Below are positions 20,061 through 21,219 of a DNA stretch of 64,000 bases, in pieces. The stretch covers positions 2,688 to 66,687 of the forward strand of contig JAHJSH010000017.1 of NCBI GenBank assembly GCA_018830525.1, in the 5' to 3' direction. The notes under the pieces are model-generated. The model was not told the DNA's origin. It did no database searches and saw nothing but the letters and a program-made list of their open reading frames with translations. Each line of letters begins with the position of its first letter. Position 1 is the stretch's first letter. The DNA comes from Nanobdellota archaeon. GTDB taxonomy: Archaea; Nanobdellota; Nanobdellia; Pacearchaeales; GW2011-AR1. The translations under genes were made by a program, and so were the position numbers.

Positions 20061-20300
20061 GCTCGAAGAGTACCAAGATACAAGAGGTAATAATAATGGC
20101 GCTCAAAGAGTACCAAGATACAAGAGGTAATAATAATGGCGCTCAAAGAGTACCAAGATACAAGAGGTAATAATCATGGCGCTCAAAGAGTACCAAGATA
20201 CAAGAGGTAATAATCATGGCGCTCAAAGAGTACCAAGATACAAGAGGTAATAATAATGGCGCTCAAAGAGTACCAAGATACAAGAGGTAATAATAATGGC
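20061..20300. repeat. Six tandem 40-bp units GCTCAAAGAGTACCAAGATACAAGAGGTAATAATAATGGC
   Basis: Units start at 20061, 20101, 20141, 20181, 20221 and 20261. Variants: G in unit 1 (GCTCGAAG), C in units 3 and 4 (TAATCATGGC). Each unit has GAGGT plus ATG; the sixth ATG (20296) starts the kinase gene. Confidence 0.97.
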
Positions 20301-21219
20301 AATGTTTGACGTAGTAACTTTTGGAAGTGCGGTGATAGATACTTTTGTGGAGACAGAGTTCAATGAGAAGAGTAATTCGTTTAGTTATCCTGCTGGTTCG
20401 AAGATATTAGTGAATGATTTGAAATCGGATATTGGTGGGGGAGCGACGAATACTGCGGTTGCTTTTTCTCGATTGGGATTGAATACTGGATGTGTGTGTA
20501 AGATTGGAGATGATAATAATGGATTGGATGTTTTGAATATGTTTAAACGAGAGAAGATTAAATTTTTGGGTTCGATTGCGCAGGGCGAGACTGGTGAGTC
20601 GATAATCCTTGATAGTAAGGGAAACGGCAGGACAGTTTTGACGTTTAAAGGTCCCGGGAATAGTATTCGATTGTCTGAGATTCCGAAAATTAAAACTAAA
20701 TGGTTGTATTATTCTTCGGTTTTGGGAGAGAGTTTTAAGACGCAAGTTGCTTTGGCTAAAAAGTTGAAAGCTAAGATTGCATTTAATCCTAGTGAGTATA
20801 TAATTAAGGCGATGGATGTTCGTCCTCTTCTTAAGTTGACAGAAGTTCTTATTTTGAATAAGGAAGAGGCGCAATTGCTTTGTAAGAAGTATGCTCCCAA
20901 GGGAGTACCTGCCAAGGCAGGCAAAGAAAGAGATTTGATGGTTTGTCTTCGGGAATTTGGTCCAAAGATTGTTGTGGTTACTGATAAAAATAAGTTGGCT
21001 TATGCTTTTGATGGTGATAAGAAATATTCGATAAAGCCAAATAATGTTAAGGTTGTTGAAAGAACCGGCGCGGGTGACGCGTTTGCTTCCGGGTTTGTCG
21101 CGGGGGTTATTGTTGGCTGGGACATGAATAAGTGTTTGAAACTTGGATTGAAGGAAAGTGAATCTGTTATTAGATATTTTGGAGCGAAAAATAAATTGTT
21201 GAGGATGAAGTTGCGATGA
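20296..21219 (+). CDS. PfkB/ribokinase-family sugar kinase (possible phosphofructokinase)
   Basis: GGGATNTAVAFSRLG and TGAGDAFASGF signatures; sits between glycolytic genes. Confidence 0.85.
   Translation: MAMFDVVTFGSAVIDTFVETEFNEKSNSFSYPAGSKILVNDLKSDIGGGATNTAVAFSRLGLNTGCVCKIGDDNNGLDVLNMFKREKIKFLGSIAQGETGESIILDSKGNGRTVLTFKGPGNSIRLSEIPKIKTKWLYYSSVLGESFKTQVALAKKLKAKIAFNPSEYIIKAMDVRPLLKLTEVLILNKEEAQLLCKKYAPKGVPAKAGKERDLMVCLREFGPKIVVVTDKNKLAYAFDGDKKYSIKPNNVKVVERTGAGDAFASGFVAGVIVGWDMNKCLKLGLKESESVIRYFGAKNKLLRMKLR

Follow-up and report, generated by a model that had tools for sequence, protein, structure and literature searches.

Variable-number amplification of a start-codon-associated repeat ahead of a PfkB-family kinase gene in a Pacearchaeales archaeon: a probable functional analogue of MIRU-VNTR loci

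The kinase locus and its tandem array

The subject here is a tandem repeat that leads into a sugar kinase gene of a Nanobdellota archaeon (Pacearchaeales; assembly GCA_018830525.1, contig JAHJSH010000017.1, positions 2,688 to 66,687 of the forward strand). The 64,000 nucleotides (nt) analysed, hereafter the window, belong to an AT-rich DPANN archaeon (33% G+C), and all positions are counted from the first letter of the window. The array, with the unit GCTCRAAGAGTACCAAGATACAAGAGGTAATAATMATGGC, occupies 20061..20300 on the + strand, and the gene for a PfkB-family sugar kinase of 307 amino acids (aa) follows at 20296..21219 (+). As an earlier note made from the letters of this DNA had described, the array consists of six tandem 40-bp units, each with a ribosome-binding site and a start codon; Tandem Repeats Finder reports period 40, 6.0 copies, 98% matches and a score of 459. 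The consensus unit, GCTCAAAGAGTACCAAGATACAAGAGGTAATAATAATGGC, has six matches at no more than one mismatch, where none is expected (100 shuffles), and no match outside the array anywhere in the 64-kb window. Exactly three bases vary among the 240 nt, the number that had been counted before: G at 20065 in unit 1, C at 20175 in unit 3 and C at 20215 in unit 4. The two C variants are the base immediately 5' of the ATG in units 3 and 4.

Every unit, the last included, has an intact GAGGT (starting at 20084, 20124, 20164, 20204, 20244 and 20284), then 7 nt, then an ATG (20096, 20136, 20176, 20216, 20256 and 20296), all on the + strand. In the window, GAGGT, GGAGG or AGGTG stands 3-9 nt before the ATG in about 17% of the genes. 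A GAGGT 3-9 nt 5' of the ATG is the Shine-Dalgarno (SD) class of this genome, used by other window genes, and the ribosome-binding site proposed for the unit is thus a plausible one. The sixth ATG is the start of the kinase open reading frame (ORF), again as proposed, and Pfam PF00294 covers residues 5-299 of its product (E = 3.9e-32). The first six bases of the gene, ATGGCA (20296-20301), come from the last unit, while the in-frame ATG at 20302 is the start (MFDVV...) of homologues that lack the unit. Inside the array the junctions read ATGGCG|CTC, the canonical form, whereas at the kinase locus unit 1 opens with ATG|CTC.

Neither the kinase frame nor the promoter spacing is changed by the array, which is located outside the kinase ORF and 3' of the predicted promoter. 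A TATA-like heptamer ends 20-23 nt before the ATG in 17 of 63 window genes (27%), as against 1% at random positions; these genes form the leaderless class. For the kinase, the predicted promoter is the TATA-like box TTTATAA at 20024..20030 (+), which follows from this heptamer position rule and from its conservation: it stands at an equal distance from GAGGTGTATG in the relatives L003, L005, L029 and L036-39. With the box conserved and the promoter rule of the genome applied to it, the transcript is predicted to start near 20052-20053, and the whole array would therefore lie within the 5' leader. The element GAGGTGTATG (20052..20061, +) can be recognized from the empty sites of relatives, described below, as the ancestral Shine-Dalgarno motif and a spacer with its ATG ('ATG0', 20059-20061).

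Several simpler accounts of the unit were considered and set aside. Promoter multiplication was rejected, the units having no match to the TATA-like heptamers of the genome; a scan for sigma-70 promoters and terminators was uninformative, as expected in an archaeon. A mini-intron of the bulge-helix-bulge type was rejected on inspection, since the A-rich unit has no complementary arms. Mutagenesis by a diversity-generating retroelement came into question because the consensus has A at both variant positions; it was rejected as unsupported, since no template/variable pair exists and A is the commonest base. The array RNA has no significant fold (z = -1.49). In the unit there is only a 7-bp interrupted hairpin of -6.1 kcal/mol (z-scores -1.65 to +0.1, not significant), with no terminal inverted repeats, stable palindrome or covarying structure, and Rfam models over the array gave nothing at the gathering threshold nor at E<=1.

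Empty and filled sites in relatives

Comparison of the same intergenic region in relatives, which the earlier note had proposed as a check, reveals two states of the kinase locus. In the empty state the sequence reads TTTATAA-(28-29 nt)-GAGGTGTATG|ATGTTTGA (L003, L036-L039) or GAGGTGaaaa|ATGTTTGAC (L040-42), and the kinases start MFDVV. In the filled state one block of 38-41 nt, ending in ATGGCA, is present at exactly the empty-site junction (L005, L029, L030, L032), and the kinases start MA-MFDVV or MAKFD. The block usually has an SD-like AGAGGT, AGGGGT or AGAGGG 4-8 nt before the ATGGCA. One more contig, L031, begins inside a unit. The window array is six copies of this filled-site block.

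On a neighbour-joining tree of the kinases, filled alleles (L005, L029-32) and empty alleles (L003, L036-42) are interleaved. The block has therefore been gained or lost repeatedly at the kinase site, and the interleaving fits repeated gain as well as repeated loss. The kinase homologues are annotated as Pacearchaeota, Nanoarchaeota or 'archaeon GW2011_AR13', and the sequencing runs that contain the locus are groundwater metagenomes. Scanning genome contigs with the kinase protein gave no confirmed relatives.

A dispersed family at start codons of other genes

The kinase is not the only gene with the unit. Metagenome contigs and one genome per GTDB species were scanned with an exact pattern, and the core of the unit, CTCRAAGAGTACCAARATA, turned up behind ATGGCN (or ATGACT), with a gene start ATGGCA(A) 7-27 nt after it, so that the repeat has the general form ATGGCN-CTCRAAGAGTACCAARATA...AATA-ATGGCA. 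The core lies directly upstream of the genes for the ribosomal proteins S28e (L007, L011, L015), S19e (L009/L010, L019), L13 (L022) and L21e (L026), and of oapB (L012, L013). With the kinase, this makes six gene contexts across genomes. The contigs with dispersed copies belong to Woesearchaeota, Pacearchaeota and unclassified archaea, and all archaeal copies are co-oriented with the gene. Unit length is 40 bp in the window, 38 bp in L012, L007 and the variant seen in runs X2/X7, and 38-41 bp in single copies at kinase loci. The view that the unit arose as a duplication of the kinase's own ribosome-binding site does not survive this result: a dispersed family precedes S28e, S19e, L13, L21e and oapB, and it is amplified at oapB as well.

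Filled and empty sites can also be compared at S28e. An S28e orthologue retrieved by its protein and not by the motif (L043) has an empty site with a 26-nt spacer, ...GACAAAG|ATGGCAAAAGAA, and the filled site of L007 reads ATGGC[G CTC...AATA ATGGC]AAAAGAA, where ATGGC forms a short direct repeat on both flanks. An ATGGCA start is found in only 3 of 64 window genes, and ATGGCA thus belongs either to the element or to its target.

Searches beyond the exact pattern added little. An nhmmer profile of 13 distinct copies found no further divergent copies in the window or in the archaeal loci examined. About 11 bacterial matches to the 19-mer core among genome contigs fell inside ORFs or in unrelated DNA and were discarded, roughly 17 chance matches being expected. 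A codon-degenerate pattern of the mini-ORF encoded by the unit had 0 matches in viral contigs. In three IMG/VR contigs of one phage family (L033-L035), the 3' end of an ORF (...ILKEYQNRNNK*) contains the exact 19-nt core, and an overlapping ATG comes next; this was judged a coincidence.

The company that the core keeps raises the question of whether it is a regulatory leader, acting as a nascent peptide, M-A-L-E/K-E-Y-Q-N/D-I, or as a factor-bound RNA motif that would co-regulate ribosomal-protein and a few other genes, with the array multiplying the input. The core precedes four ribosomal-protein genes, in three genomes it alone is strongly conserved within the L7Ae-S28e spacer, and the free position of the Ala codon varies (G/A/T) while the ATG and the next codons are kept. 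On the other hand, the search by exact core match brings an ascertainment bias, and the S28e orthologue that was not selected by motif lacks the core entirely. The core is also lost or decayed in kinase relatives, mini-ORF length and stop position are not conserved, and neither a covarying structure nor an Rfam family was found. We regard a regulatory leader as very improbable.

A separate observation concerns the S19e leader, which is outside the window. Between the TATA-like box and the mini-ORF it is conserved (L009 395-455, L019 2925-2985) and contains a pair of small hairpins, GAGCTTTAAGCTC / GGGCTTCGGCTT and TCTCCGTGAGGAGA / TCTCTGTAAAGAGA, of which the latter has a compensatory C-G to T-A change between the L009 and L019 genomes. 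It may be a ribosomal-protein leader RNA.

Copy-number variation and the reality of the array

A second assembly of the same strain has a different number of units, in agreement with the suggestion that repeat number changes. Contig L001 (ENA ERZ27247117 k141_120150) encodes an identical kinase and, over 10.9 kb, has 3 mismatches to the window (99.97% identical). Its array has 5 units, which by the base in front of the ATG run A,A,C,A,A, as against A,A,C,C,A,A in the 6 units of the window.

Such a difference invites the suspicion of an assembly artefact, in which a short-read assembler over- or under-collapsed a shorter repeat. The source is indeed a short-read metagenome assembly, the k=31 contigs of all runs break in the array, and the contig of one relative (L031) ends within a unit. 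Yet neither the 6-unit nor the 5-unit array has a repeated k-mer at k>=99, and each allele has private 100-150-mers (unit orders C-C vs A-C-A) that must exist in reads, so that neither allele can be the assembler's collapse of the other. Moreover, run X1 contains 99% of the words of the strain over 10 kb, and although its k=31 contigs break inside the array, the repeat k-mers have a depth of 59-85 against about 20 in the flanks, that is, 3-4 times deeper. The artefact that the earlier note had allowed for can hardly be the explanation.

Other samples carry other unit types. The depth in X1 suggests an array of about 4-5 units, a rough estimate, as contig depths are averages and the 38-nt unit type has some of the k-mers in common; C-type units are absent from the k=31 contigs of this run. 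Closed k-mer cycles correspond to A-type 40-nt units in X5, to C-type 40-nt units in X4 and to 38-nt units in X7, and in X2 and X3 38-nt units also adjoin 40-nt ones. The samples thus differ in copy number and in unit composition. The gene oapB provides a second copy-number-variable locus, with 3 x 38 bp in L012 vs 1 in L013, a clean 76-nt indel. The earlier note held that an invariant repeat number, together with occurrence upstream of unrelated genes, would mark a generic satellite. The unit does occur at unrelated genes, and its number is not invariant.

Another contig, L002 (k127_271516 of ERZ928008), encodes a kinase that is 100% identical from residue 13, with unrelated sequence (L002 1-64) upstream of about position 20332 of the window. 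It was set aside as an allele, being probably a chimeric contig end near the repeat. A contig of run X2 at the L002 breakpoint region begins with Illumina adapter sequence.

Mini-ORFs and the geometry of stops and starts

The upstream ATGs open short out-of-frame ORFs, as the earlier note had seen. Those at 20096, 20136, 20176 and 20216 each open a 24-aa ORF, MALKEYQDTRGNN(N/H)GAQRVPRYKR, giving four overlapping 24-codon mini-ORFs at 20096-20170, 20136-20210, 20176-20250 and 20216-20290 (+). Two of the four peptides have H in place of N because of the C variant bases. Each mini-ORF crosses the following ATG in another frame; its stop, a TAA whose T is also the T of GAGGT, is 5 nt before the ATG two units downstream. 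The ATG at 20059, immediately 5' of the array, is an additional upstream ATG and opens the first mini-ORF, MLEEYQDTRGNNNGAQRVPRYKR (23 aa, 20059..20130, +), whose stop is 5 nt before ATG 20136. The last out-of-phase mini-ORF (17 aa, 20256..20309, +) ends at TGA 20307-20309; it overruns the kinase start and overlaps the in-frame kinase ATG 20302 by 8 nt.

The mini-ORFs can be read as two interleaved chains. In the 6-unit allele one chain runs 20059 to 20136 to 20216 and ends 5 nt before the kinase ATG 20296, and the other runs 20096 to 20176 to 20256 and ends in the 17-aa ORF with its 8-nt overlap of ATG 20302. In the 5-unit allele the roles of the two chains are exchanged. The 38-bp unit is simpler. 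It is a 12-codon ORF, ATG GCG CTC GAA GAG TAC CAA GAT ATA CAA ACA AAA TAA, whose stop overlaps the following ATG (TAATG). Compared with it, the kinase form has two extra bases which, together with GAGGT, shift the frame. In L012 three consecutive 12-codon mini-ORFs precede oapB, which starts at the final TAATG. In L013 and L022 the stop of the upstream gene overlaps the mini-ORF ATG, and TAATG overlaps are present in L007, L012, L013, L022 and the X2 variant.

In Haloferax volcanii and E. coli, termination-reinitiation is reported to work where stop and start are -8 to +10 nt apart (PMC10666635), and the distances found here (-1 for TAATG, +5 and -8 nt) are all inside that range. We infer that the mini-ORFs are translated and that ribosomes are handed on by termination-reinitiation, from mini-ORF to mini-ORF and then to the gene. 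The single transcript that a coupled leader ORF requires would be supplied via the predicted promoter only. To call the upstream ATGs 'decoy' starts, as had been done, is correct in that upstream out-of-frame ATGs exist; it is too simple in that the mini-ORF chains end +5 / -8 nt from kinase starts.

The same geometry bears on phase variation by repeat number, which the earlier note had raised. Since 40 is 1 mod 3, one 40-bp unit would flip the relay from ATG 20059, an even number of units being ON and an odd number OFF. In keeping with such a switch, the chain from 20059 ends on the kinase ATG in the 6-unit allele and in the overrunning 17-aa ORF in the 5-unit allele, and the two alleles are present in near-identical strains. 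However, the 8-nt overlap of ATG 20302 by the overrunning ORF also permits reinitiation, and every unit has its own SD, so that ribosomes can enter either chain. Efficient initiation at ATG 20059 is itself doubtful because only 2 nt separate this ATG from the GAGGT before it, and only 6-7 nt from the predicted end of the RNA, and relatives with a single unit (an odd number) are common. Given that the array is outside the ORF, that the last unit keeps its SD and that both chains stop close enough to a kinase start for reinitiation, we hold a strict ON/OFF parity switch to be improbable. A relay that makes the units tolerable is favoured instead, as both chains can deliver ribosomes to a kinase start.

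Comparison with known systems

Mycobacterial interspersed repetitive units (MIRUs) of Mycobacterium (Supply et al., 1997) are, as summarized in PMC12548453 and PMC3184786, associated with start codons, carry an internal ORF and form variable-number tandem repeat (VNTR) arrays. By these summaries, the likeness to the archaeal repeat is fourfold. The units are of about 40 bp or more and sit between or before co-oriented genes, at start codons. An internal small ORF overlaps or abuts the flanking stop and start codons, an arrangement that would keep translation coupled. Empty and filled sites exist, with short flanking direct repeats (ATGGC here), and the tandem arrays have strain-dependent copy numbers.

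The differences are equally clear. There is no sequence relationship, and the hosts are an AT-rich DPANN archaeon and a GC-rich actinobacterium. The overlap is TAATG (-1) or +5/-8 here vs -4 as described for MIRUs, and the kinase-lineage unit has its own SD motif. The archaeal unit has no G-C-rich internal inverted repeats, and against the ~40-50 copies of M. tuberculosis we find one site per genome fragment. Without a sequence relationship, and in an archaeal host, the unit is an analogue of MIRUs and not a member of them.

Other systems share part of the picture. In termination-reinitiation leaders, or leader ORFs for 'ribosome delivery' (Huber et al., 2019; PMC10666635), the stop of the leading ORF is likewise -1, +5 or -8 nt from the next start, and in the bicistronic-design expression cassettes outlined in PMC12548453 the terminal part of the leader ORF contains an SD, as it does in the 40-bp unit. 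Here, in contrast, the leader ORF is repeated up to six times, the 40-bp form has two interleaved chains, and the system is known from sequence alone. With bacterial phase-variable contingency loci the array has in common a repeat beside the start codon, a unit length that is not a multiple of three and a number that is polymorphic between near-identical strains. It departs from them in lying outside the kinase ORF, in leaving frame and promoter spacing unchanged, in keeping a route to the kinase start at both copy-number parities, and in the gene itself, which belongs to central metabolism and not to a surface or restriction function. Like repetitive extragenic palindromic sequences and bacterial interspersed mosaic elements (REP/BIME) or miniature inverted-repeat transposable elements (MITEs), the unit is small, dispersed and non-autonomous, and is sometimes clustered. 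Unlike them, it has no terminal inverted repeats or stable palindrome; it also keeps strictly to the orientation of the gene and the phase of the start codon, which is not characteristic of REPs or MITEs. Our searches of the literature gave no account of an element of this kind from DPANN archaea, and the repeat family seems not to have been described previously in archaea.

The proposed mechanism

The array, we think, is probably a small, dispersed repeat associated with start codons that has been amplified in tandem to a variable number, an archaeal functional analogue of MIRU-VNTR loci that is tolerated through a translational relay. A unit of 38-41 bp (CTCRAAGAGTACCAARATA, an A-rich tail and ATGGCR) would come to sit against the start codon of a gene, co-oriented with it. 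The unit would supply a new ATGGCA start, and the upstream ATG would become the start of a mini-ORF (M-A-L-E/K-E-Y-Q-N/D-I...). In the 38-bp form, a ribosome that terminates at TAATG could start again, either on the gene or on the unit that follows. In the 40-bp form of the kinase lineage, the unit would bring its own GAGGT 7 nt before the ATG, and its 24-codon ORF would stop 5 nt before the ATG two units on. Because expression would be relayed in this manner, and because the last unit gives a normal ribosome-binding site, the unit could be present, absent or amplified at little cost. From two copies onward, slipped-strand mispairing or unequal recombination could alter the number (6, 5, ~4). 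The array would lie in the 5' leader of a kinase-aldolase-triose-phosphate isomerase transcript, where extra units would act as competing initiation sites and overlapping mini-ORFs. Their most likely effect would be to modulate, not to switch, the supply of ribosomes to the kinase start.

A more modest account holds that the array is a neutral minisatellite, an accidental duplication of the kinase leader that drifts in number; the last GAGGT-ATG would give normal expression and the upstream units would be inconsequential. This agrees with the intact ribosome-binding site and start in every unit, the last included, with the close relatives that do well with 0 or 1 unit, with an RNA devoid of significant structure, and with the 98% identity of the units, which suggests a recent expansion. 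It leaves unexplained why the core stands at the starts of five unrelated genes in other genomes and why it is amplified at oapB, and it is improbable that five to six additional SD-ATG sites, with their overlapping ORFs, have no effect on translation. We consider such a minisatellite unlikely, if still a serious contender; its overlap with the MIRU-like account is on the origin of the array, and the two differ only on effect.

Several observations weigh against the MIRU-like account. One copy site was found per genome fragment examined, with none elsewhere in the 64-kb window, and the analysis of the unit found no mobilizing enzyme, terminal inverted repeats or strong hairpin; nor were a transposase or insertion intermediates identified for it. 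The unit may have spread by transposition, by recombination or by vertical descent with loss. The apparent conservation of the core is partly a matter of ascertainment, since an exact-match pattern served to find the dispersed copies. The junction inside the array, ATGGCG|CTC, differs from the product of a simple ATG-microhomology duplication of the single-copy kinase leader. The stops of the mini-ORFs are heterogeneous (TAATG in 5 of 11, the rest stopping earlier or overrunning the gene start), and some relatives (L030, L032) have a decayed mini-ORF at the kinase locus. The groundwater metatranscriptome run X8 gave no contig at the 5' end of the kinase, the 5' end of the transcript being a prediction only. 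Finally, copy numbers were compared between assemblies and samples from contigs (k=31 for the runs), not from reads.

A broader reading extends the MIRU-like account to the lineage as a whole. Woese- and Pacearchaeota would carry a family of repeats that ride on start codons, spread or are exchanged among the 5' ends of highly expressed genes (those for ribosomal proteins, oapB and a glycolytic kinase), come with an ATGGCA start of their own and a conserved mini-ORF, and are tolerated by the relay; amplification would tune the translation of central metabolism from strain to strain, and the family would be an independent counterpart of MIRU-VNTR. We put this forward tentatively, as a possibility on the doubtful side.

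Gene neighbourhood and other features of the window

The kinase has these genes as neighbours: glyceraldehyde-3-phosphate dehydrogenase (GAPDH), phosphoglycerate kinase (PGK), aldolase, triose-phosphate isomerase (TIM), a ROK-family kinase and a cupin-type isomerase-like gene. Upstream, the order is GAPDH, PGK, a Zot/KaiC-like ATPase (opposite strand), a 389-aa protein without family and the array. Downstream it is the kinase, class I aldolase, DUF7670, TIM, a short-chain dehydrogenase/reductase (SDR), the cupin-type isomerase-like gene, the ROK-family kinase and a GHMP kinase. The genes for the kinase, class I fructose-bisphosphate aldolase (21216-21983, +), DUF7670 membrane protein (21974-22357, +) and archaeal TIM (22354-22980, +) have overlapping stops and starts on the same strand (21216..22980). 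A metatranscriptome contig of run X8 (depth ~2) at 21157-21342 spans the kinase stop and aldolase start; it is consistent with co-transcription of the two genes, and DNA carry-over is also possible.

What the kinase phosphorylates is less clear. Its protein is below all NCBIfam equivalog cut-offs, with ribokinase among the best hits (90.9 bits vs a cut-off of 299.65). Among solved structures, the MJ0406 sugar/nucleoside kinase and a fructokinase (E ~1e-11) come nearest. The idea of the earlier note that the gene may serve the phosphofructokinase step keeps the support of its glycolytic context but gains none from the protein, and is suggested as a reasonable guess from the neighbours.

The neighbourhood differs in detail among relatives. 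The gene for the Zot/KaiC-like P-loop ATPase (278 aa, 17937-18773, -) lies between PGK and the 389-aa gene in the window and in L001, and in L003 and L005 PGK is followed directly by the 389-aa gene with no such ATPase between; from this gene order the ATPase gene is a strain-specific insertion or deletion. The gene between aldolase and TIM (21974-22357 in the window) also varies: here it encodes DUF7670 (125-127 aa), L003 has a 55-aa ORF in its place and L005 a 47-aa fragment. L003 also lacks the SDR gene after TIM (22996-23745 in the window). Small inserts in the glycolytic cluster are therefore variable.

Elsewhere in the window, positions 704-910 hold a perfect (100%) tandem duplication with a 98-bp unit and 2.1 copies, within a stretch (504-1026) that has no convincing ORF; it could be a recent duplication or an assembly effect. 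A tRNA-Ser (anticodon AGA) at 30315-30395 was called by ARAGORN and not reported by the Rfam tRNA model at the gathering threshold, and the remaining four tRNAs of the window were found by both.

Concluding remarks

If our interpretation is true, start-codon repeats of this kind have practical consequences. Gene callers place starts inconsistently around the units and short-read assemblies break there, which calls for caution with the annotation of such loci. The arrays could serve as VNTR-type strain markers for uncultured groundwater DPANN populations. They would also offer a natural allelic series for the study of serial termination-reinitiation and tandem SD sites, with 0, 1, ~4, 5 and 6 units at the kinase and 1 vs 3 at oapB. 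Above all, the strategy of MIRUs, a mini-repeat that settles on start codons and survives by handing ribosomes on, would have arisen independently in archaea with tiny genomes.

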